This document shows positions 35,746 to 60,114 of a stretch of DNA of 64,000 nt, piece by piece. The notes under the pieces were generated by a model. It saw only the letters and a program-made list of their open reading frames with translations. It was not told where the DNA came from and did no database searches. The first letter of the stretch is position 1, and every line of letters begins with the position of its first letter. The translations under genes were made by a program, and so were the position numbers. The stretch is from Burkholderiales bacterium (GTDB lineage Bacteria; Pseudomonadota; Gammaproteobacteria; Burkholderiales; CAIKXV01): positions 7,659-71,658 of the forward strand of contig JBBRCD010000005.1 of the NCBI GenBank assembly GCA_038205245.1, written 5' to 3'.

Positions 35746-35782
35746 TTGCACGGCAGATGAATACCGTATAAATATACGGCAT
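35746..35782 (+). promoter_or_regulatory. putative imuA promoter (TTGCAC -35, TAAATA/TATAAA -10) overlapped by palindrome ATACCGTA-TAAATA-TACGGCAT
   Basis: Palindrome at 35761-35782. Its last two bases are the A and T of the imuA ATG. A near-identical copy lies at lexA. Confidence 0.6.
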
Positions 35783-36761
35783 GCCCTCCGTTGCCTTCGC
35801 TCCCCTCCGCGGCTCCACCTCCGGTTCCGTCTCCGGTCTCGGCGCTGTCCCTGTTCCGGACTCGCCGCTGCCGCAGGCGCTGCGGGCATTCGCCGCCCGC
35901 ACGGCGGGGGTCGGTCCGGTGGCCCTGTCCTCGATCCCGTCGGTGTTCCGCGCCGGCGAACTGCCCGCGAACATCGCGCCCGGCATCCCGACCGGGTTTC
36001 CCGATCTGGACGCCGAGATTCCCGGTGGCGGCTGGCCGGTGGCGGCGCTGACCGAAATCCTGTCGGACGCCTGCGGTATCGGTGAGGTGTCGCTGCTGCT
36101 GCCGGCGCTGCGCCATCTGACCCGCTCGGCCGACTGGCGCGGACGCGGGCTGCTGCTGATCGATCCGCCGCACATGCCTTATGCACCGGCACTGGCGGCG
36201 GCCGGCATCGACCTGGAGGCGCTGGCGATACTGCGGCCCCGGAGCGAAGACGATGCGCTGTGGGCGGCCGAGCAGGCGCTGCGCAGCGGGGCGGCCGGTG
36301 CGGTGCTGCTGTGGGCACGCCCTGCGCGCGGCAGCGACAGCGCGCAGCGCTACCAGCGGTTGCGCCGGCTGCAGCTCGCCGCCGCCGCTGGCGGTGGTCT
36401 GGGCATCGTTTTCTCAGCCAGCTGTGCGGCGACCCTGTCGACACCGGCGGCCTTGCGGCTGGCACTGAGCGTCACTGCGGAAGGGGCGCTGGCGGTGAGT
36501 CTGTGCAAGCGGCGCGGGCTGGCGCGGCCGAAGACGGTGACCCTCAGGGCGCGCCGGCTGCCGCAGCCGTATCTGGCCGGGCAGGCACTGCGGCCGCGCG
36601 CGCTGGCGGCAGGTCAGATGGCGGGCGGTGCGGTGCCAGTCGATCCGTCCGGCGCCGGTCTGCCTGGCCGGATCGCACATTCGGTGGCGGCGGTGGGGGC
36701 TGCGCTTCGCGCGGCTTCGGTCCGTCTGACGCGCGAGCGTGAGTTCACCCCGTCGCGATGA
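35781..36761 (+). CDS. imuA: translesion-synthesis-associated protein ImuA (RecA/SulA-like)
   Basis: The block IPTGFPDLDAEIPGGGWPVAALTEIL is typical of ImuA. First gene of the imuA-imuB-dnaE2 cassette. The N-terminus is about 30 aa longer than usual, so an internal GTG near 35919 is possible. Confidence 0.8.
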   Translation: MPSVAFAPLRGSTSGSVSGLGAVPVPDSPLPQALRAFAARTAGVGPVALSSIPSVFRAGELPANIAPGIPTGFPDLDAEIPGGGWPVAALTEILSDACGIGEVSLLLPALRHLTRSADWRGRGLLLIDPPHMPYAPALAAAGIDLEALAILRPRSEDDALWAAEQALRSGAAGAVLLWARPARGSDSAQRYQRLRRLQLAAAAGGGLGIVFSASCAATLSTPAALRLALSVTAEGALAVSLCKRRGLARPKTVTLRARRLPQPYLAGQALRPRALAAGQMAGGAVPVDPSGAGLPGRIAHSVAAVGAALRAASVRLTREREFTPSR

Positions 36762-36788
36762 TGCCGGCGCAGCCACTGGATATCGACC

Positions 36789-38330
36789 GTGTCATCGACC
36801 CTGTTGTGGATTGCACTCTATCTACCCGAACTGCCTCTGGAGGCGGTCAATCGTGCCCAGTCGGGCAGTGGGGGGCTGGGTGGGATTTCGAGTGACCGTG
36901 CCAGCGGCGCGCTGATCCTCGACCTGCCGCTGGCGGTGAGCGACGGCCCGGGCAACAGGCCGTTCGTGCTGGCCGTCAATGCACCGGCACATGCCGCCGG
37001 CGTTTGTGTCGGCATGAGCGTCGCGGCGGCCAATGCGCTTGTCACCGGACTGGTCGTGCTGCCGCGCGCTGCCGAGCGCGAGCAGCAGGCGATCGCGCAG
37101 GTCGCGGCCTGGGCTGCACAGTTCACCCCATCGGTGGTGCTCGAGCGCGCCGGGGTGCTGCTCGAAGTCTCGGCCAGTCTCAAACTGTTCGGTGGTCTCG
37201 CGCGGCTGCTCGGACAGTTGCGCACCGGTCTCACCGAACTGGGCTTTCGCGCTGCCTTCGGTGTGGCGCCGACACCGCGTGCGGCCTGGCTGCTCGCGCG
37301 TGCCGGGCACCGGCAGACCGGCGTACGTGCCTGCCTCGAGCCGGGCGATCTGGCCGCGCGTCTCGCCGGGTTGCCGCTCGAACTGCTCGACTGGCCGCGC
37401 GAGACCCTCGATGCGCTGGCGGTGCTGGGTATCAGCCGTATAGGCGAGGCGACTGCGCTGCCACGCGAGGGCTTCCGGCGCCGCTTCGGTGCGCCAGCAT
37501 CGATCGATCTGGATCGTGCCCTGGGCCGTGCCGCCGATCCGCGGGTGTGCTTCGCGTTGCCCGAGCGCTTCGATGCGCGTATCGATCTGCTGAGCGAGGT
37601 CAACGACACCGCGCTGCTCGATGTGCCGCTCACGCGCATGCTCGCGGCAATGGAAGGTTTTCTGCGCGCGCGCGGGGCCGGTGCGCTGCAGGTCGAAGTC
37701 GAGCTCGAGCATGGCCGTTCGATGCCACCGACGCTGCTTGCGGTCGGCGCGCATGCGCCCGAGCGTGCCCGTGTCCGCTGGCGCCGGCTGCTGCGCGAGC
37801 GGCTTGACCGGCTCGAACTCAAGGCTACGGTGAGCGCGGTGTCGATCAAGGTGGCGACATTGCATGGCTTCGGCGAACAGAGCACCAGCTTCCTGCCCGA
37901 TGCGACGCGGCGTGCGCAGTCCTGGCGCGAACTCACCGAGCGGCTCGCCTCCCGGCTCGAGCCCGGCGCGATGTTCACCGTGGCGCTGCGCGATGACCAT
38001 CGCCCGGAGCAGGCCTGGTATCGCGCCGATGCCCGGCTGCCGCCACCCGCGGCGCGCCAGCTGCATGAATCGCCAGCCGGCGCACTCGGTGCACGGCCGG
38101 TGTTCCTGCTCGAGCGGCCGCGCGCGCTCATCTGTGCCGAAGCCCGCCCGCAGTATCAGGGTGCACTGGAGATGATCAGCGGGCCGGAGCGGATCGAAGC
38201 CGGCTGGTGGGATGGCCGGGCCGCGGCGCGTGACTACTTCGTCGCGCGCAACCGTTGTGGCGAGGTGTGCTGGATCTATCGTGAGCCGGTCGATCCGTCG
38301 CGCTGGTATCTGCATGGCGTGTTCGGCTAG
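36789..38330 (+). CDS. imuB: Y-family polymerase-like protein ImuB
   Basis: 513 aa. N-terminal LWIALYLPELPLEAV is typical of ImuB. Sits between imuA and dnaE2. Confidence 0.85.
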   Translation: MSSTLLWIALYLPELPLEAVNRAQSGSGGLGGISSDRASGALILDLPLAVSDGPGNRPFVLAVNAPAHAAGVCVGMSVAAANALVTGLVVLPRAAEREQQAIAQVAAWAAQFTPSVVLERAGVLLEVSASLKLFGGLARLLGQLRTGLTELGFRAAFGVAPTPRAAWLLARAGHRQTGVRACLEPGDLAARLAGLPLELLDWPRETLDALAVLGISRIGEATALPREGFRRRFGAPASIDLDRALGRAADPRVCFALPERFDARIDLLSEVNDTALLDVPLTRMLAAMEGFLRARGAGALQVEVELEHGRSMPPTLLAVGAHAPERARVRWRRLLRERLDRLELKATVSAVSIKVATLHGFGEQSTSFLPDATRRAQSWRELTERLASRLEPGAMFTVALRDDHRPEQAWYRADARLPPPAARQLHESPAGALGARPVFLLERPRALICAEARPQYQGALEMISGPERIEAGWWDGRAAARDYFVARNRCGEVCWIYREPVDPSRWYLHGVFG

Positions 38331-38371
38331 CAGTTCAGCGCACACGCCCAACGAACGCCAGTCGCCGCAGC

Positions 38372-41300
38372 ATGTTGCCGGGCTATGCCGAACTCGACGC
38401 ACTGTCGAACTTCAGTTTCCTGCGCGCGGCCTCGCATCCGGAGGAACTGGTCGCGCAGGCCTCGGCCCTGGGCTATCGCGCGCTGGCGATCGTCGACGAG
38501 TGTTCGGTGTCCGGTGTGGTGCGCGCCCATCTGGCGGCGAAGGACTGCGCGCTGGCGCTGATCGTCGGTGCGCAGTTCAGGCTGGCCGACTGCACGGCGA
38601 TAGAACGGGTGATCCTGCTTGCCTGCACACGCGAGGGCTATGGCAATCTGTGCGAGCTGATCAGCCTGGCACGCGGTCGCGCGCCCAAGGGCAACTACCG
38701 GCTGCAGCTCGCCGATCTGCTGCGGGGGCTTGATCAGTGTCTGGCGATCGTGCTGCTGGCTGCCCCGGAGACGGTGGCGGCCGAGACCGAGACCGAGACC
38801 GCCGACTCACCCGCGGGACCTGCCGTGCACGATGCGCTCGGGCTGCTCGCCCGCGCTTTCCCCGGCGACTGCTGGCTCGGCGTCGCGCTGGTGCAAAGTG
38901 CGGACGATGGCGCGCGGCTTGCGCACGCGCTGCAACTGGCGGCCGAACTGCAGCTGCCGTTGACTGCCTGCGGTGCAGTGCAGATGCACCGGCGAGAACG
39001 CAAGCCGCTGCATGATGTGCTGACCGCCATCCGCGCGCTGACACCGCTCACCGAGCTCGGCCGCCGGGTGCTGCCCAATGCCGAACGCTGCCTGCGCCCG
39101 ATCGGCCGGCTGATGCAGCTCTATCCGCCCGAGCTGCTGGCGCAGACGATGGCGATCGCCGAACGCTGCACCTTCTCGCTCGATGAGTTGCGCTACGAGT
39201 ATCCGCGCGAGCTGGTGCCGCAGGGGCGCAGCGCGAGCGCCTGGCTGCGCGAGCTGACCTTCGACGGACTCGCGCTGCGCTATCCGCACGGCGCATCCGA
39301 TGCGGTGCTGAAGTTGATCGAGCATGAGCTCGCGCTCATTGCCGAGCTGAAGTACGAGGCCTACTTCCTCACCGTGCATGACATCGTGCGTTTCGCGCGC
39401 GGCCGCGGCATCCTGTGCCAGGGGCGCGGCTCGGCGGCGAACTCGGCGGTCTGCTATGCACTGGGTATCACCGAGGTCGACCCGGGACGCATGCAGGTGC
39501 TGTTCGAGCGCTTCATCTCCAAGGAGCGCAACGAGCCGCCCGATATCGATGTCGACTTCGAGCATCAGCGGCGCGAAGAGGTGATGCAGTACCTGTACGC
39601 GAAGTACGGGCGCGATCGCGCCGCGCTGACTGCAGCGCTGTCCACTTACCGGCCACGCTCGGCGCTGCGTGATGTGGGCAAGGCGTTCGGCTTGTCGCTC
39701 GACCAGATCGACCGATTGACGAAGACGCTCGCCTGGTGGGATGGACGCGAGGTGGCGCGCGAGCGGCTGGTCGAGGCTGGCTTCGACCCGGACAATCCGC
39801 TGCTCGTGCAGGTGGTCGAGTTCGCGCATCTGCTGGTCGGCTTTCCCCGCCATCTGTCGCAGCACAGCGGCGGCTTCGTCATTGCGCGCGACCGGCTGAC
39901 CCGGCTGGTGCCGGTTGAGAACGCGGCGATGGACGGGCGCACGGTGATCCAGTGGGACAAGGACGATCTGGATGCGCTCGGCCTGCTCAAGATCGATGTG
40001 CTGGCGCTGGGCATGCTCACTGCGGTGAGAAAGACGCTCGATGCCCTGAATGCATTCGGGGTACCGTCACCGGAGGGCGGGGCGAGGCACGTTTCGGGTA
40101 CAGACCCCGTATCGGATCCCGCATCACATCCTGCATCACATCCTGCATCACATCCTGTAACGTCCGCAGCCTGGCGTCTGCAGGACATCCCGGCCGAGGA
40201 TGCCGCCACCTACGCGATGATCCAGCGCGCCGACACCATCGGCGTGTTTCAGATCGAGTCGCGTGCACAGATGTCGATGCTGCCGCGGCTGAAGCCGGCC
40301 TGCTTCTACGATCTGGTGATCGAGGTGGCGATCGTGCGCCCCGGGCCGATCCAGGGCGGCATGGTGCATCCGTACCTGCGCCGGCGGCAGGGCCGGGAGC
40401 CGGTCACCTATCCATCGGCGGCGGTGAAGGGCGTGCTCGAGCGCACGCTGGGCATCTCGATCTTCCAGGAGCAGGTGATGCAACTGGTGGTGGTGGCCGC
40501 CGGCTTCACCGCCGGTGAGGCCGACCGGGTGCGCCGGGCGATGGCCGCCTGGCGGCGCAAGGGGGGGCTTGAGCCGTTTCGCGACAAGCTGCTCGCCGGA
40601 ATGCTGGCGCGCGGCTACAGCGCGAGCTATGCCGAGCAGATATTCCAGCAGATTCTCGGCTTCGGCGAGTATGGTTTTCCCGAGTCGCATGCGGCGAGCT
40701 TTGCGCTGCTGGTGTATGTGTCGTGCTGGCTGAAGTGCCATCACCCGGCAGCCTTCGCCTGCGGGCTGCTCAACTCGCAGCCGCTGGGCTTCTATGCGCC
40801 CTCGCAGATCGTGCAGGATGTGAAACGGCATGGCGTGCAGGTGCATGCGCCCGATGTGCTGGTGAGCGGATGGGATTGCGTGCTGGAGGCGGCGGTCGAT
40901 GCGCAGGCGAGATCAGGTGCACTGTCGGCTGCGGCGCCGGAAGTAACACCGGTAGCACTGGTAACACCGGTAGCACCGGAACCGACATCGGCGCCGGGCA
41001 CGCTGCCTGGGGTGGCACCTCACCTGGTGCCGGGTCCGGCATTGAGACTCGGCCTGCGCATGATCAAGGGATTGAGCGAGGCCGGGGCTGCGCGGCTGGT
41101 GGCCGCGCGCGCGCAGTCACCGTTCAGCGATGTCGCCGATCTCGCGCGCCGCGCACAGTTGCAGCGCACCGACATCAACGCGCTGGCCGCGGCCGATGCA
41201 CTCGTCTCGCTCGCCGGGCATCGGCGCGAGGCGTGGTGGCAGGCGCTGGGTTTCGATGGCGATACGGCATTGACACGGTCGCCGCGCGATGCCGTGCAGC

Positions 41301-41737
41301 CGTCGCTGTTCGAACCGCGCGAAGGCGAGCAGGTGGTGCTCGACTACGCCACGCTCGGGCTCACGCTGCGCAGTCATCCGCTCGCGCTGTTGCGCCCGTT
41401 GCTGACTGCGCGCCGCATGTCCACTGCCGAGGCGCTGCGCAGTTCGCGCAACGGGCAGACGATGCGCGTGTGCGGCATCGTCACCTGCCGCCAGCGTCCG
41501 TCCACCGCCAGCGGGGTGGTGTTCGTCACCCTGGAGGACGAGACCGGCTACATCAATGTCGTGGTCTGGCCGGCGCTGGTCGAGCGTCAACGCCGCGAAC
41601 TGCTCGCCTCACGGCTGATGACCGTCTACGGCCAGGTGCAGCGCGAAGGTGAAGTCATCCATCTGGTGGCGGGCCGGCTGGTCGATGACAGTCGGCTGCT
41701 CGGGCGGCTCACTACCCAGTCGCGCGACTTCAGCTAA
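38372..41737 (+). CDS. dnaE2: error-prone DNA polymerase DnaE2 (ImuC)
   Basis: 1121 aa. PHP N-terminus YAELDALSNFSFLRAASHPEEL and Pol III alpha core blocks (GRGSAANSAVCYALGIT, DIDVDFEH, HSGGFVI). Confidence 0.95.
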   Translation: MLPGYAELDALSNFSFLRAASHPEELVAQASALGYRALAIVDECSVSGVVRAHLAAKDCALALIVGAQFRLADCTAIERVILLACTREGYGNLCELISLARGRAPKGNYRLQLADLLRGLDQCLAIVLLAAPETVAAETETETADSPAGPAVHDALGLLARAFPGDCWLGVALVQSADDGARLAHALQLAAELQLPLTACGAVQMHRRERKPLHDVLTAIRALTPLTELGRRVLPNAERCLRPIGRLMQLYPPELLAQTMAIAERCTFSLDELRYEYPRELVPQGRSASAWLRELTFDGLALRYPHGASDAVLKLIEHELALIAELKYEAYFLTVHDIVRFARGRGILCQGRGSAANSAVCYALGITEVDPGRMQVLFERFISKERNEPPDIDVDFEHQRREEVMQYLYAKYGRDRAALTAALSTYRPRSALRDVGKAFGLSLDQIDRLTKTLAWWDGREVARERLVEAGFDPDNPLLVQVVEFAHLLVGFPRHLSQHSGGFVIARDRLTRLVPVENAAMDGRTVIQWDKDDLDALGLLKIDVLALGMLTAVRKTLDALNAFGVPSPEGGARHVSGTDPVSDPASHPASHPASHPVTSAAWRLQDIPAEDAATYAMIQRADTIGVFQIESRAQMSMLPRLKPACFYDLVIEVAIVRPGPIQGGMVHPYLRRRQGREPVTYPSAAVKGVLERTLGISIFQEQVMQLVVVAAGFTAGEADRVRRAMAAWRRKGGLEPFRDKLLAGMLARGYSASYAEQIFQQILGFGEYGFPESHAASFALLVYVSCWLKCHHPAAFACGLLNSQPLGFYAPSQIVQDVKRHGVQVHAPDVLVSGWDCVLEAAVDAQARSGALSAAAPEVTPVALVTPVAPEPTSAPGTLPGVAPHLVPGPALRLGLRMIKGLSEAGAARLVAARAQSPFSDVADLARRAQLQRTDINALAAADALVSLAGHRREAWWQALGFDGDTALTRSPRDAVQPSLFEPREGEQVVLDYATLGLTLRSHPLALLRPLLTARRMSTAEALRSSRNGQTMRVCGIVTCRQRPSTASGVVFVTLEDETGYINVVVWPALVERQRRELLASRLMTVYGQVQREGEVIHLVAGRLVDDSRLLGRLTTQSRDFS
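40109..40156. repeat. 12-nt in-frame tandem repeat (GCATCACATCCT x3 plus a degenerate unit)
   Basis: Encodes VSDP ASHP ASHP ASHP within dnaE2. Further in-frame repeats: GAGACC x3 at 38783-38800, and about 40940-40980. Confidence 0.9.
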
Positions 41738-54737: not shown

Positions 54738-55709
54738 GTGAGCGGCGAGTTCGGTCTGATTGCACGGCACTTCGTATGGCCGGCGCCGGGCGCCGATCTC
54801 GGTGTGGGCGATGACGCCGCGCTGCTGTCGGTCGGGGCAGGCATGCAGCTGGTGGTGTCGACCGACCTGCTGGTCAGCGGTACCCATTTCCTGGCGGACA
54901 CCGATGCGCAGCGTCTCGGGCGCAAGGCGCTGGCGGTCAACCTGTCCGACATGGCGGCGATGGGTGCGCGCCCGCGCTGGGCGACGCTGGCGCTGGCGCT
55001 GCCTGCGGTGGATGAAACCTGGCTTTCGGCCTTCGCGCTCGGGCTGCGCACACTGGCCCAGGCGCAGTCGACCGAGCTGGTCGGCGGTGACACCACCCGC
55101 GGACCGTTGACCATCGGCATCACCATCCTGGGTGAGGTGCCGCGCGGGCAGGCGTTGCGCCGCGACCGGGCACAGCCCGGCGACGACGTATGGGTGTCGG
55201 GCACGCTGGGCGACGCGGCAGTCGCGCTCGCGCAGTTGAACGGGGCGCACCTGCCTGACGCACAACTGCTCGACGCAGCTGCATTCGATCAATGCCGGCA
55301 GCGTCTCGAAGCACCCGAGCCGCGGGTGGCGCTGGGCGTCGCGCTGCTTGGGCTGGCCAACGCAGCGATCGACATCTCCGACGGCTTCGCGGCTGATCTT
55401 GGTCATATCCTCGAGCGCTCCGGGGTCGCTGCCCGTGTGGCCTATGACCGGCTGCCGCTATCGCCAGCGCTTGCCGGGCTGCGTTTCGAGCCGTCGGTCG
55501 TGCAGGCGATCATCGCCGGTGGCGACGACTACGAGCTGTGCTTCACGGCACCGCGCTCGGCGCGCGCGCAGGTCGAAGCCGCCGCGCTCGCCGCGGGCAC
55601 CCCGGTGACCCGCTGCGGCGAGATCCTGGCCGGGGTCGGCCTGCAACTGCTCGACGCCGATGGCCACACGCTGCCCCTGGCGCGCAGCGGATTCGATCAC
55701 TTTGGCTGA
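54738..55709 (+). CDS. thiL: thiamine-monophosphate kinase
   Basis: 323 aa, GTG start. EFGLIARHF...GVGDDAALL and the AIR-synthase-like fold pattern. Confidence 0.9.
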   Translation: MSGEFGLIARHFVWPAPGADLGVGDDAALLSVGAGMQLVVSTDLLVSGTHFLADTDAQRLGRKALAVNLSDMAAMGARPRWATLALALPAVDETWLSAFALGLRTLAQAQSTELVGGDTTRGPLTIGITILGEVPRGQALRRDRAQPGDDVWVSGTLGDAAVALAQLNGAHLPDAQLLDAAAFDQCRQRLEAPEPRVALGVALLGLANAAIDISDGFAADLGHILERSGVAARVAYDRLPLSPALAGLRFEPSVVQAIIAGGDDYELCFTAPRSARAQVEAAALAAGTPVTRCGEILAGVGLQLLDADGHTLPLARSGFDHFG

Positions 55710-56211
55710 GCCGCCCAGCGCTTCGCCAGCGGCGCGCCGCGCCGATGCCCGCTGGGTGTTCAGCGATCCGGCCGCGTTCATCGCCTTCGGTGCCGGCAGC
55801 GGACTGGCACCCCGCGCCCCGGGCACTGTCGGCACGCTGGTGGCGTTTCCGTTGCACTGGCTGCTGGTCTACATGCTGCCGCCGATGGCGCATCTGCTGG
55901 CTATCGCCGGCCTGTTCGCGCTGGGAGTGTGGGCGTGTGGGGCGGCCGGACGCGCACTCGGTGTCGCCGATCACGGCGGCATCGTGATCGATGAGGTGGT
56001 GGCGTTCCTGTTCGTGCTGTGGGCAGTGCCGGCGTTGTGGTGGGCCTGGCTGTTGGGGTTCGGCCTGTTCCGGTTGTTCGACATCTGGAAGCCGCAGCCG
56101 ATCCGCTGGTTCGACCGCAACCTCAAGGGCGGCTTGGGCGTGATGTTCGACGACTTTCTGGCGGCGGCGGCAACATTGCTTGTGTTCGCCATCCCCGCTA
56201 TCTTTCGTTAA
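55660..56211 (+). CDS. pgpA: phosphatidylglycerophosphatase A
   Basis: FGAGSGLAPRAPGTVGTL, DHGGIVIDEV and FRLFDIWKP motifs. The start may be the TTG at 55702 that overlaps the thiL stop. Confidence 0.85.
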   Translation: MATRCPWRAADSITLAEPPSASPAARRADARWVFSDPAAFIAFGAGSGLAPRAPGTVGTLVAFPLHWLLVYMLPPMAHLLAIAGLFALGVWACGAAGRALGVADHGGIVIDEVVAFLFVLWAVPALWWAWLLGFGLFRLFDIWKPQPIRWFDRNLKGGLGVMFDDFLAAAATLLVFAIPAIFR

Positions 56212-56708
56212 TGATCGCAGACGACGCAGTGCTCTATCAGCTCGCCGAGAATGTCGGCCGTGCTTTGTCGACCCGCGGCCTGATGCTCGCCACCGCCGAG
56301 TCCTGCACCGGCGGCTGGGTGGGCCAGGCGATGACCATGGTTCCGGGCAGCTCCGAGTGGTACGAGCGCGGCTTCATCACCTACACCTACATCGCGAAAA
56401 TCGAGATGCTCGGTGTGCTGTCGGCGACGCTCGACGCGCATGGCGAGGTGAGCGAGCAGACCGCCGGCGAGATGGCGCGCGGGGCGCTCGAGCGCAGCCA
56501 CGCCCAGGCGGCATTGTCTATTACCGGCGTGGCTGGCCCGGGCGGGGGCTCGCCGGACAAGCCGGTGGGCACTGTCTGTTTCGGCTGGTCGTTCCTCGAT
56601 GGCCGCAACCACACCGAGACGCTGTCGCTGATCGGTGACCGGGACTGGGTGCGGCGGCAGTCGGTGCAGCACTCGCTGACGCGGTTGCTCGGCTGGCTGC
56701 TGGCTTGA
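56211..56708 (+). CDS. pncC: CinA-family nicotinamide-nucleotide amidohydrolase domain protein (PncC-like)
   Basis: 165 aa from MIADDAVLYQLAE (TAATG overlap). ATAESCTGGW and SITGVAGPGGG motifs. Confidence 0.85.
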   Translation: MIADDAVLYQLAENVGRALSTRGLMLATAESCTGGWVGQAMTMVPGSSEWYERGFITYTYIAKIEMLGVLSATLDAHGEVSEQTAGEMARGALERSHAQAALSITGVAGPGGGSPDKPVGTVCFGWSFLDGRNHTETLSLIGDRDWVRRQSVQHSLTRLLGWLLA

Positions 56709-57607
56709 GCGGGCCGACTTCAGAGTCCGGCGCGCTCAGGCCGCAGCAGCGCTTCGACTATTCGGCGATCGTCGATCGGCCCAAGCTGAAGCTGCCGCGC
56801 GGGGTGCGGCTGATCCTGTGGCCAGTGGTCAACATCGAAGAATGGGACATCGGCCGCCCGATGCCGCGCGGGGTGTCCAACGCCCCTGGCGGCAAGGCGG
56901 CGATACCGGATACCCAGAACTGGGGCTGGCACGAATACGGCATGCGGGTCGGCTTCTGGCGTCTGGTCGAGTCGCTGGCCCGGCACCGGATCAAGCCGAC
57001 GCTGTCGATCAACGCCAGGGTGTGCGAGACCCGGCCGCGGGTGGCGCAGGCGGCGCTGGACGCCGGCTGGGAGTTCATGGCCCACTGCTACGAGCAGATG
57101 CCGATCCAGGCGGTAGCCGATCAGCGCGCGATGATGCGCCAGACGATCGAGGTGCTCGAGCGGTTTACCGGGCGCCGTCCGACCGGCTGGCTCGGACCCG
57201 GGCGCGGGCAGACCTGGGCCACGCCGGACTACATCGCCGAAGCGGGCTTCACCTGGTTCGGCGACTGGGTGATGGACGATCAGCCGTTCTGGGTTAAGAC
57301 CGGGAGCCGGCCCCTGCTGTCGATCCCCTATTCGGTCGAGCTGAACGACATCACCATCATGCTGACCGGCCTGCACGAGTCGGATGCGATGCTCAAGCGG
57401 GCGAAGGACGCCTTCGACCAGCTGTACCGCGAGTCTTCCAGGCAGCCGCGGATACTCTCGTTCGGCGTACATCCCTACATCTCGGGTGCGGCGCATCGCG
57501 CGAAGTACTTCGACATGATGCTGCGCTACTTCCGCAGCCACAAGGACGTGGTGTTCTGGCAGGGTGAACAGATCCACGACTGGTTCACCGGGCAGGTCCA
57601 CCCGTAG
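56705..57607 (+). CDS. polysaccharide deacetylase-family protein
   Basis: 300 aa, TTG start overlapping the upstream stop. NodB-like fold pattern (WPVVNIEEW, HCYEQ). Confidence 0.75.
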   Translation: MSGPTSESGALRPQQRFDYSAIVDRPKLKLPRGVRLILWPVVNIEEWDIGRPMPRGVSNAPGGKAAIPDTQNWGWHEYGMRVGFWRLVESLARHRIKPTLSINARVCETRPRVAQAALDAGWEFMAHCYEQMPIQAVADQRAMMRQTIEVLERFTGRRPTGWLGPGRGQTWATPDYIAEAGFTWFGDWVMDDQPFWVKTGSRPLLSIPYSVELNDITIMLTGLHESDAMLKRAKDAFDQLYRESSRQPRILSFGVHPYISGAAHRAKYFDMMLRYFRSHKDVVFWQGEQIHDWFTGQVHP

Positions 57608-57641
57608 CGTTTTCAGGTTTTTCAGGTTCTTCGACCGGCCG

Positions 57642-57660
57642 GGCCCGGAAAATCCGGGCC
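57642..57660 (+). terminator. hairpin GGCCCGG-AAAAT-CCGGGCC after the deacetylase gene
   Basis: Perfect 7-bp GC stem 35 nt after the stop. No U-tract. Confidence 0.4.
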
Positions 57661-57674
57661 GATGCAGATAGGGC

Positions 57675-57712
57675 TTGCATTCCTCCCCGAATACCGTATA
57701 AATTTACGGTAT
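57675..57712 (+). promoter_or_regulatory. putative lexA promoter (TTGCAT -35, TATAAA/TAAATT -10) overlapped by perfect palindrome ATACCGTA-TAAATT-TACGGTAT
   Basis: Palindrome at 57691-57712 with perfect 8-bp arms. Its last two bases are the A and T of the lexA ATG. No Shine-Dalgarno. Confidence 0.65.
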
Positions 57713-58310
57713 GGACGGTCTGACCTCACGACAACAGGAAATCCTCGACTTCCTCCGCACCTTCTCGGAGGAGAACGGCATGCCCCCCACCCGGGCGGAG
57801 GTGGCGCGCGCCTTTGGCTTCCGGTCGCCCGCATCGGCCGAGGAGCATTTGCGGGCGCTCGAGAAGAAGGGCGCCATCACCCTGTCCGGCATGGCACGCG
57901 GGCTGCGTCTGACCGAGCCCGCCGGCCTGCCGCTGATCGGGCAGGTTGCCGCCGGGGCGCCACTGCTCGCTCAGGAGAACGTGCTCGGCCATTATCCGGT
58001 CAGCCCGAATTTGTTCAAGCTGCGTGCCGACTATCTGCTCAAGGTGCGCGGCTGGAGCATGCGCGACGCCGGCATTCTGGATGGCGACTGGCTCGTGGTG
58101 CACCGAACGACCGAGGCGCGCGACGGCCAGATCGTGGTCGCCCGGGTGGACGATGAAGTCACCGTCAAGCGCCTCAAGCGCAAGGCCGGTCGTGCCTATC
58201 TGATCGCCGAGAACCCGGAGTTCTCGCCGATCGTGATCGAACTCGCCAAGACGCCGCTCGCGATCGAAGGTATCGCGCTCGGTGTAGTGCGTGACCTCAA
58301 TGCTGTCTGA
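57711..58310 (+). CDS. lexA: SOS repressor LexA
   Basis: 199 aa. [12 protein letters not shown]...[10 protein letters not shown] wHTH, Ala-Gly cleavage site in VAAGAP, catalytic Ser in RGWSM and Lys in VKRL. Confidence 0.95.
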
Positions 58311-58469
58311 CCCTGCCGTTTGACCCCATCTTTCAACCTTACCACCCAAGCCCACCACCCAACCTCACGCGCCGGCAACCGAAGTTTCGTTCGCCAGCGT
58401 TCTGTTTCAAACCCGACCCGAAGAAAAGAGGATGCGATAATGCCGCCTGACTCAGGAGTACACCAACAG

Positions 58470-59516
<1,047 letters not shown>

Positions 59517-59539
59517 ACTGAAGCGTTGCGCCGGTTCGA

Positions 59540-59571
59540 CCCTGGCGTTGCCGGTACTGGCGACGCCAGGG
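59540..59571 (+). terminator. 13-bp-stem hairpin between recA and recX (possible attenuator)
   Basis: CCCTGGCGTTGCC-GGTACT-GGCGACGCCAGGG with one G-T wobble, 24 nt after the recA stop. No U-tract. Confidence 0.45.
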
Positions 59572-59658
59572 ACGACTGGCGGTTCAGACGCCGATGCGCG
59601 ACCACCCGTCCCACCCGTATCGAGCGGCTCACCAGGCTTGCCGGACTGATCGGGGCTG

Positions 59659-60114
59659 ATGCCGCGTCCTTCCCTATCGATGCGTGGGCGCGGTCTTGGC
59701 TACCTCGCCCGCCGGGAGCACTCGCGGCAGGAGCTTGGTGCCAAGCTGCGCCGCCACGCAGCACAGGGCGAGGATGTGGACGCGCTTCTGGACGACTTTG
59801 AGCAGCGGGGATGGCTGTCCGAGCGGCGCCTGGTGCAGCAGGTGATCACTGGAACGAAACGCTTCGGCGCGGCCCGCCTGCTGCACGACCTGCGCCGGCG
59901 CGGCGTGAACGAGAGCTTGATCCGGGAGGCCGCCGACCCGCTCAGGCGAAGCGAGCTCGCCTCCGCGCGTGCGGTCTGGCAGAAGCGGTTCGGCACGTTG
60001 CCGGTGGATGCGCAGTCCCGGCTCAAGCAGATCCGGTTCCTGCGCGGTCGCGGCTTTTCGTCGGGCACGATCGAACGTATCCTTCGCACCACGGTGGACG
60101 AAACGCCGGAATAG
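59659..60114 (+). CDS. recX: recombination regulator RecX
   Basis: 151 aa. YLARREHSRQELGAKL and the three-repeat helical pattern typical of RecX. Immediately follows recA. Confidence 0.9.
   Translation: MPRPSLSMRGRGLGYLARREHSRQELGAKLRRHAAQGEDVDALLDDFEQRGWLSERRLVQQVITGTKRFGAARLLHDLRRRGVNESLIREAADPLRRSELASARAVWQKRFGTLPVDAQSRLKQIRFLRGRGFSSGTIERILRTTVDETPE

Follow-up and report, generated by a model that had tools for sequence, protein, structure and literature searches.

A 64,000-nucleotide stretch of the Burkholderiales bacterium contig JBBRCD010000005.1, called the window below, carries a lexA gene whose proposed -10 region and start codon are covered by a perfect palindrome of 22 bp. This palindrome is very probably the LexA operator of an autoregulated lexA. 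It is of a variant type, CCGT-N8-ACGG, which departs from the canonical SOS box by one base in each half-site and is matched by a change in the recognition helix of LexA similar to that of the altered-specificity variant LexA408. The best explanation as a whole, which combines the variant operator, the helix switch, repression by occlusion of the promoter and a leaderless lexA message, is given a probability of about 0.7. The elements on which it depends are the following.

57691 to 57712, no strand assigned: putative LexA operator palindrome of 22 bp, ATACCGTA-TAAATT-TACGGTAT.
57711 to 58310, forward strand: lexA coding sequence, 199 amino acids (TIGR00498, 221.5 bits against a cut-off of 110.95).
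35761 to 35782, no strand assigned: putative imuA operator ATACCGTATAAATATACGGCAT, with the core CCGT-N8-ACGG at 35764-35779, overlapping the imuA ATG.

A preliminary description of this DNA had reported a perfect palindrome around the lexA start, and all its coordinates were exact on re-reading (57675-57680 for the upstream hexamer, 57691-57712 for the palindrome and 57711 for the ATG). In detail, the arms ATACCGTA (57691-57698) and TACGGTAT (57705-57712) are 8 nt long, 100% complementary and separated by a 6-nt gap, and the right arm runs into the lexA ATG (57711-57713), whose A and T are its final two bases. The 20-mer equivalent to an SOS box, TACCGTATAAATTTACGGTA, occupies 57692-57711 and its core, CCGT-N8-ACGG, 57694-57709. 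Compared with the canonical box of beta- and gammaproteobacteria, TACTGTATATATATACAGTA, CTGT is replaced by CCGT and ACAG by ACGG, i.e., one base per half-site. The half-sites are inverted, 4 bp long and 8 bp apart, and the spacer between them, ATAAATTT, consists of A+T in 8/8 positions.

The lexA palindrome is more than a chance feature. Exact copies of CCGT-N8-ACGG are found only twice in the 64-kb window (G+C ~66%), at lexA and at imuA, each with A or T at all eight positions of its centre and with its end on an SOS gene's start codon. When up to three mismatches to TACCGTA-N6-TACGGTA are allowed, two sites are present against 0.19 expected. The canonical CTGT-N8-ACAG does not occur within the window, and neither of the two sites has CTGT/ACAG half-sites, since they read CCG.../...CGG. 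Loci of related lineages, 110 kb in total, contain 20 CCG-N10-CGG sites whose centre is rich in A+T; every one of these lies at a lexA or imuA promoter, and none was located elsewhere. It could be argued that some regulator distinct from LexA binds the palindrome, or that the latter is an accident of an A+T-rich promoter, and the presence of only two sites in the window would agree with this. However, these two sites are placed on lexA and on the classic LexA-regulated imuA-imuB-dnaE2 genes, they share their spacing and flanks with the canonical SOS box, their number far exceeds the chance expectation, and box type is perfectly associated with LexA helix type (see below). Such a reading is considered extremely improbable. 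The earlier proposal of an autoregulatory operator is, on the contrary, reinforced by the conservation of the box in orthologous lexA promoters, by its recurrence at imuA and by the match between the changed base and a change in the recognition helix.

The product of lexA contains both PF01726 and PF00717, and a winged-helix N-terminal domain, an S24 peptidase, an Ala-Gly cleavage site and a Ser/Lys dyad are all found in it. In alignment, its VAAG motif corresponds to A84-G85 of Escherichia coli LexA, the serine in GWSM to S119 and the lysine in VKRLK to K156. No gap interrupts residues 1-57 in the alignment with E. coli LexA structures, which gives the recognition helix as SPASAEEHL in the window protein and SPNAAEEHL in E. 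coli, that is, N41A and A42S. The ten closest database matches (68-99% identity) all have SPASAEEHL, whereas matches P0011-P0120 all have the E. coli-type helix SPNAAEEHL or a near variant with Asn41-Ala42 kept. The closest relatives outside the window's clade are proteins of Burkholderiales and Rhodocyclaceae with 62-66% identity.

LexA408 is an engineered altered-specificity LexA, reportedly obtained by laboratory selection and attributed to Thliveris and Mount 1992. Its sequence, ...GFRSASSAEEHL, carries P40A, N41S and A42S and reads RSASSAEEHL (supplement of PMC8222386), and the operator that the protein binds is the one altered in both half-sites, CCGT-N8-ACGG; the wild-type box is not bound (PMC7102963). 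The op408 half-site is CCGT (PMC12430536), and the hybrid operator of the SU202 two-hybrid system is CCGT-N8-ACAG (PMC12430536; PMC3575510). Wild-type LexA domains alone do not repress the op408 half-site, a property on which SU202 relies (PMC12430536; PMC3575510). In the wild-type protein, Asn41 makes a water-mediated contact with A15 (PMC5999292). The window operator has the same CCGT-N8-ACGG form as op408, and the helix changes also fall within positions 40-42: in the window's clade, P40 is unchanged, position 41 is Ala and not Ser, and S42 is the same as in LexA408. The window LexA would thus owe its reading of the CCGT box to two changes in the recognition helix, Asn41 to Ala and Ala42 to Ser; to judge from the boxes, the P-A-S helix would confer a LexA408-like specificity. 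This match of helix and box to LexA408/op408, which was absent from the preliminary description, is the most informative point of the analysis.

The relation between helix and box was followed through a scan of GTDB species genomes, which returned 80 lexA loci. Thirteen loci with a 408-like helix and 65 loci with N41/A42 were tabulated. All 13 loci of the first kind have CCG-type boxes only, and none has CTG-type boxes only, both types, or no exact box. Among the 65 loci of the second kind, 43 have CTG-type boxes only, one has both types, 21 have no exact box and none has CCG-type boxes only. The association of helix type with box type is therefore complete among the loci tabulated. None of the exact boxes in the N41/A42 loci examined lacks the CTG trinucleotide, which is altered in the window box.

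The 13 loci with a 408-like helix form only two clades, the one of the window and a large Casimicrobiaceae-like one, and thus two evolutionary events are counted and not thirteen. The second clade (L008, L023, L062, L091 and L116, with the label Casimicrobiaceae in some records) has the helix T-(A/P)-S-S-A-E-D-H-L; among its 120 top matches, A/P-S-S occupies positions 40-42 in 118 and the exact A-S-S of LexA408 is found in 115. Its lexA promoters contain CCGT-type boxes (TACCGTTTATAATAACGGTA, TACCGCATATAAATACGGTA or ACCGTACATTTATACGGT), which lie downstream of clear TTGAC-type promoters or overlap them. Two tandem boxes sharing GGTACC, the first of which contains TATAAT, are present in L008 (2891-2928) and L062 (~2890-2930), and the LexA proteins of the same two loci have an N-terminal extension of 10-20 residues (MPAERRRPYAH...). 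Positions 40-42 are A-S-S in LexA408, P-A-S in the window's clade and A-S-S or P-S-S in the Casimicrobiaceae-like clade; all of them have Ser42 and lack Asn41.

In a neighbour-joining LexA tree of 197 columns, the two clades appear as sisters in 3/200 bootstraps. A single origin of both is therefore unsupported, in a tree whose deep nodes are weak. Since the two are so rarely grouped, the switch may have arisen twice and the 408-like helix may be of independent origin in each. We lean towards the view that two lineages of uncultured Betaproteobacteria, namely the freshwater/microbial-mat clade of the window and the abundant Casimicrobiaceae-like clade of soil, have shifted the whole SOS regulon from CTGT-N8-ACAG to CCGT-N8-ACGG through a LexA408-like helix change.

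The lexA promoter is conserved in relatives. Five uncultured Betaproteobacteria/Burkholderiales metagenome-assembled genomes (MAGs; L001-L005), with 85-90% LexA identity, have boxes of the form ATACCGTATAAAT(T/G)T(A/T)CGGT with the ATG immediately after. In these, CTTGC is located 17-18 nt upstream of TAAAT(T/G), an in-frame stop also stands three codons before the ATG, and no Shine-Dalgarno motif is present upstream of lexA. The more distant L118 (68% LexA identity) has AACCGTATAGATTTACGGTATG in unchanged register, and L120 and L126 agree with the five in both box and register, so that the operator is identical or near-identical in L001-L005, L118, L120 and L126. The only blocks invariant in the eight aligned orthologous promoters are CTTGC, ACCGTATA.AT and CGGTATGGA. 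The flanks diverge freely, the sequence upstream of the -35 is not conserved, and the invariant blocks amid them constitute a phylogenetic footprint. In nine relatives, the most distant with 68% LexA identity, CTTGC, the box and the ATG stand in a common register, and the ATG is the lexA start codon, in the same register, in all orthologues examined. In L005 (2991-3003) and L120 (2991-3012) the right arm is degenerate (TTCGGTA) and an additional in-frame ATG is found within the box (ATGTTCGGTATG). Gene callers use this inner ATG in the sub-lineage, giving a LexA of 202 amino acids that starts with MFGMDG.

The elements of the proposed promoter, with the stop codon that overlaps them, are the following.

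57675 to 57680, forward strand: proposed lexA -35, TTGCAT (CTTGC being invariant in the eight orthologous promoters).
57699 to 57704, forward strand: proposed lexA -10, TAAATT, with an 18-nt spacer, 6 nt before the ATG.
57697 to 57702, forward strand: alternative lexA -10, TATAAA, with a 16-nt spacer, 8 nt before the ATG.
57699 to 57701, forward strand: in-frame TAA stop inside the palindrome, three codons before the lexA ATG.

At the -10 position the relatives have TAAATT, TAGATT or TAAATG. In the nine relatives the distance from the TTGC-type -35 to TA(A/G)AT(T/G) is 17-18 nt, and the second hexamer ends 6 nt before the ATG. In the window, TAAATT likewise ends 6 nt before the ATG, and transcription is therefore expected to start at the A of the ATG; if TATAAA serves as the -10, the start would be at the same A or 1-2 nt upstream. 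The preliminary description had held, from the alignment of the N-terminus, that there was no room for a leader. That conclusion does not follow, since the alignment bears on an upstream start codon, which the in-frame TAA at 57699-57701 also makes impossible, and not on an upstream start of transcription. Further into the reading frame, no ATG, GTG or TTG occurs before codon 24, and a start there would delete the conserved first helix of the N-terminal domain. A predicted -10 element ending about 6-8 nt before the ATG, with no alternative start codon upstream, as expected of a leaderless gene, is thus found at lexA, and this promoter geometry makes a strictly leaderless lexA mRNA probable.

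A related possibility is that the palindrome is the LexA operator and the message is not strictly leaderless, with transcription starting a few nucleotides upstream or, additionally, from an unrecognised upstream promoter, and translation initiating independently of a Shine-Dalgarno motif. Such initiation seems common in the lineage: the motif precedes 13/39 called genes in relatives (L118-L125), and it is absent in the window from imuB (GTG 36789; region 36759-36789) and dnaE2 (ATG 38372; region 38340-38372), as it is upstream of lexA. Furthermore, imuA in L124 and L125 is apparently translated 40-45 nt downstream of its promoter and box without a Shine-Dalgarno motif, the alternative -10 could place the start 1-2 nt upstream of the lexA ATG, and no T-run terminator precedes the lexA promoter in the window. 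On the other hand, the promoter scan gave no other promoter-like site on the forward strand between the upstream gene and the lexA ATG, and the sequence upstream of the -35 is not conserved. Two relatives, L002 and L003, have intrinsic terminators whose ends lie ~45-55 nt before the lexA ATG, and nothing promoter-like follows them. A longer leader would also bury the AUG in an 8-bp hairpin according to the predicted fold, whereas the leaderless 5' end is predicted to be unstructured. A leadered message is therefore rated as possible and rather unlikely.

The same predicted fold, which pairs AUACCGUA with UACGGUAU and includes the AU of the AUG, is the ground for another reading, in which the palindrome is an RNA hairpin that hides the AUG in a read-through transcript from the gene upstream and exerts translational control, and is not a DNA operator. 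The folding energy, however, does not stand out from that of shuffled sequence (z = -0.82), no Rfam family was matched, and the loop is conserved as a -10 element instead of varying freely. As DNA, the box occurs in both orientations before dnaE2, imuA and lexA in many contigs; in the Casimicrobiaceae-like clade one or two boxes lie downstream of a clear TTGACA-17-TATAAT promoter; and the match to LexA408/op408 has no explanation at the RNA level. The hairpin was rejected, the fold being present yet unexceptional against shuffled sequence, and this reading is held to be very unlikely.

The second site of the window belongs to a mutagenesis cassette, imuA-imuB-dnaE2, which spans 35781..41737 on the forward strand.

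35746 to 35751, forward strand: proposed imuA -35, TTGCAC (a TTGC-type hexamer is equally distant in L122, L123 and L124).
35781 to 36761, forward strand: imuA (NF033429, 187.8 bits).
36789 to 38330, forward strand: imuB (weak Y-family polymerase matches).
38372 to 41737, forward strand: dnaE2 (NF004225, 1443 bits).

The likeness of this site to that of lexA, also noticed in the preliminary description, was confirmed, with ATACCGTATAAATATACGGCAT at 35761-35782, the ATG at 35781 and TTGCAC at 35746-35751. The operator is kept in the imuA orthologues L122-L125, and L122 and L123, which share a contig or an assembly with two of the relatives used for lexA, retain both the box and the ATG register. 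By these features the imuA operator is judged secure, and the start codon and leaderless status of imuA are less certain than those of lexA. The N-terminal extension of ImuA is variable and of low complexity, with 54 residues before the profile in the window and ~21 in L125.

Several observations weigh against the explanation as a whole or against parts of it. The helix-box association is drawn from just two clades, and the window LexA is not identical to LexA408, given that Pro40 is kept and position 41 is Ala. The lexA promoter is a weak sigma-70 match (7-8/12 positions) and is not reported by the consensus promoter scan because TTGCAT matches TTGACA at only 3/6 positions; its assignment therefore rests on conservation. 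Searches of public RNA runs returned only recA metatranscriptome contigs of other organisms and nothing over the lexA 5' end. As the Shine-Dalgarno motif is often missing in the lineage, its absence at lexA carries little weight. At imuA, L124 (~1937-2001) and L125 (~1491-1552) keep the promoter and the box without an in-register ATG, which is changed to ACT or ATC, and the called start is 40-45 nt downstream. The register can therefore be dispensed with, in imuA at any rate. The match to the ImuA profile starts at residue 55, and translation of imuA in the window could begin at GTG codon 47 or 55. For these three reasons, i.e., the profile, the GTG codons and the ATG lost in two orthologues, imuA was rejected as an equally firm leaderless case.

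The sequences, their conservation and the helix-box association are observed and the specificity of LexA408 is known from the work of others, whereas LexA binding to the window box, the start of transcription and the mode of translation initiation are predicted from the sequence. The mechanism favoured here may be outlined as follows. A LexA dimer on the 20-bp site would cover about -20 to +1/+2, including the -10, the A+T-rich operator centre doubling as the -10 element. Bound LexA would occlude RNA polymerase at the lexA promoter, a mode of repression suggested by what LexA is known to do where its boxes and promoters overlap. Once DNA is damaged, self-cleavage of LexA under the stimulus of RecA would free the promoter, and transcription would start on the A of the lexA ATG, producing a leaderless message. 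The second operator would control imuA-imuB-dnaE2 in the same manner. The recA gene would be translated from the lexA transcript by means of its own Shine-Dalgarno motif, within a unit lexA-recA(-recX).

The neighbouring elements are listed below.

57642 to 57660, forward strand: G+C-rich hairpin GGCCCGGA-AAA-TCCGGGCC with 8-nt arms, 100% complementary, after the deacetylase-family gene.
58440 to 59516, forward strand: recA (TIGR02012, 562.8 bits), the start of which may instead be ATG 58470.
59659 to 60114: recX, after recA.

The spacer between lexA and recA is 129 nt long and has an AGAGGA Shine-Dalgarno motif before the recA ATG; no box, forward-strand promoter or terminator was called within it, and recA is probably co-transcribed with lexA. 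The hairpin upstream of lexA has no T run and was not called by the terminator scan. It is a possible terminator, and full intrinsic terminators are found at the equivalent place in L002 and L003. From 55660 to 60114 the window contains pgpA, a cinA/pncC-type amidase gene, a polysaccharide-deacetylase-family gene, lexA, recA and recX, an order that is kept in L120 and L126. In L118 the order is lexA-recA-recX-alaS, preceded by an acetyl-CoA-synthetase-like gene.

Metagenome contigs were also scanned for the exact pattern ATACCGTATAAATNTACGG, which gave 37 loci. The matches of low G+C content look like chance. The G+C-rich ones comprise lexA of the window's clade, lexA of the A-S-S clade, the imuA of the window and the start of dnaE2 in ~12 contigs of other lineages. 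A CCGT box stands directly before dnaE2 in L082, L086, L110, L090, L102 and L117 (also in L081, L109, L087, L097 and L113). Several of the metagenome dnaE2 matches have their ATG in the TACGGTATG register, and imuA-imuB was not seen on the box-proximal side of these dnaE2 loci. L084 and L101 carry a perfect CCGT box, ATACCGTATATTTATACGGTATG, on which a transposase gene of the IS91 family (PF04986, PF14319) starts; this gene may be under SOS control.

A comparable layout is encountered with other boxes. In a large clade of MAGs of soil Burkholderiales, whose LexA has the helix SVNAAEQHL, a box of canonical type, either TACTGTATATAATGCCAGT or CTGG-N8-CCAG, contains TATAAT and ends 2-3 nt before the lexA ATG, without a Shine-Dalgarno motif (L013, L014, L016, L017, L019, L025, L034, L045, L046 and L074; similar in L021, L028, L029, L040, L043, L050, L052, L071 and L073). 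This is an apparent leaderless, operator-over-promoter arrangement with a different box. A third clade (L058, L067, L069, L070 and L075), differs strongly in its helix, which is STNGVQKHL or STNAVFKHL. The ~20 nt before its lexA ATG hold a palindrome of the GGTGATAATGTTTTCACC type (GGTGA-N8-TCACC), which contains GATAAT and ends directly on the ATG and which may be another non-canonical LexA motif. An operator over the -10 and the start codon is thus found in three LexA clades with three different box sequences, suggesting that these lineages of Burkholderiales favour a lexA that is leaderless and represses itself.

In comparison with known systems, the window box resembles the canonical SOS box in its 16-bp core, its inverted 4-bp half-sites 8 bp apart, its TA/TA flanks and its A+T-rich centre, and differs from it in the second base of the half-site, which is C and not T. 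As in the canonical SOS system, sites are present at the lexA promoter and at imuA-imuB-dnaE2, and the LexA is of the TIGR00498 type with its self-cleavage residues intact. As its half-sites are not CTGT, the window box is not a member of the CTGT class, though it is SOS-box-like in its presumed working. A single box covers the -10 and the start codon of the window lexA, whereas E. coli lexA has two boxes, and the gammaproteobacterial loci L030-L039, L042 and L063 also have two upstream of the ATG. Unlike LexA408, the natural 408-like LexAs are predicted to control the SOS regulon of their own genomes and not a reporter.

Leaderless messages are common in actinobacteria, and a leaderless lexA has a precedent among them. 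In Mycobacterium tuberculosis, the start of lexA transcription was shown by experiment to be the start of translation (PMC2897130). That species is an actinobacterium with a Cheo-type box, unlike the present betaproteobacterium, in which leaderlessness is predicted. Another betaproteobacterial departure from CTGT-N8-ACAG was reportedly described by Sanchez-Alberola et al. 2015 (J Bacteriol 197:2622) in Sideroxydans/Gallionella/Nitrosomonadales, with the non-canonical motif GAACGaaCGTTC and a laterally acquired Gram-positive-like LexA. That motif is unrelated in sequence to the one of the window, and the window LexA, in contrast to the Sideroxydans type, is otherwise a standard betaproteobacterial protein with a box that is a one-base neighbour of the canonical one. 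No description of a natural CCGT-N8-ACGG LexA motif was found in the searchable literature, outside the scope of which lie most subscription journals; the motif is apparently new, and an earlier description may exist.

Among global repressors, LexA is the textbook case of a binding motif that evolution has altered many times. About 17 LexA motifs were counted in a 2021 review (PMC8565304). The known motifs are far apart, and the path between them is therefore unclear. In the present case one base differs per half-site and the residues concerned are known from a laboratory mutant, so that the co-evolution of repressor and regulon becomes directly testable. Natural variation also separates the three LexA408 mutations, given that position 40 can stay Pro, position 41 is Ala or Ser and position 42 is always Ser. 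This suggests that P40A is dispensable and that Ala and Ser both serve at position 41, where any small residue would suffice.

The Dmitrova SU202 two-hybrid system makes use of LexA408, and so do the optogenetic repressors LEVI, eLightOn and iLight. Since LexA408/op408 is a working tool in both fields, the natural 408-like LexAs would be ready-made orthogonal parts. If the two lineages have indeed shifted their whole SOS regulon, these Betaproteobacteria would be a source of natural orthogonal LexA/operator pairs, and they would present a natural case in which a global repressor and all its operators have changed specificity by a single step per half-site.

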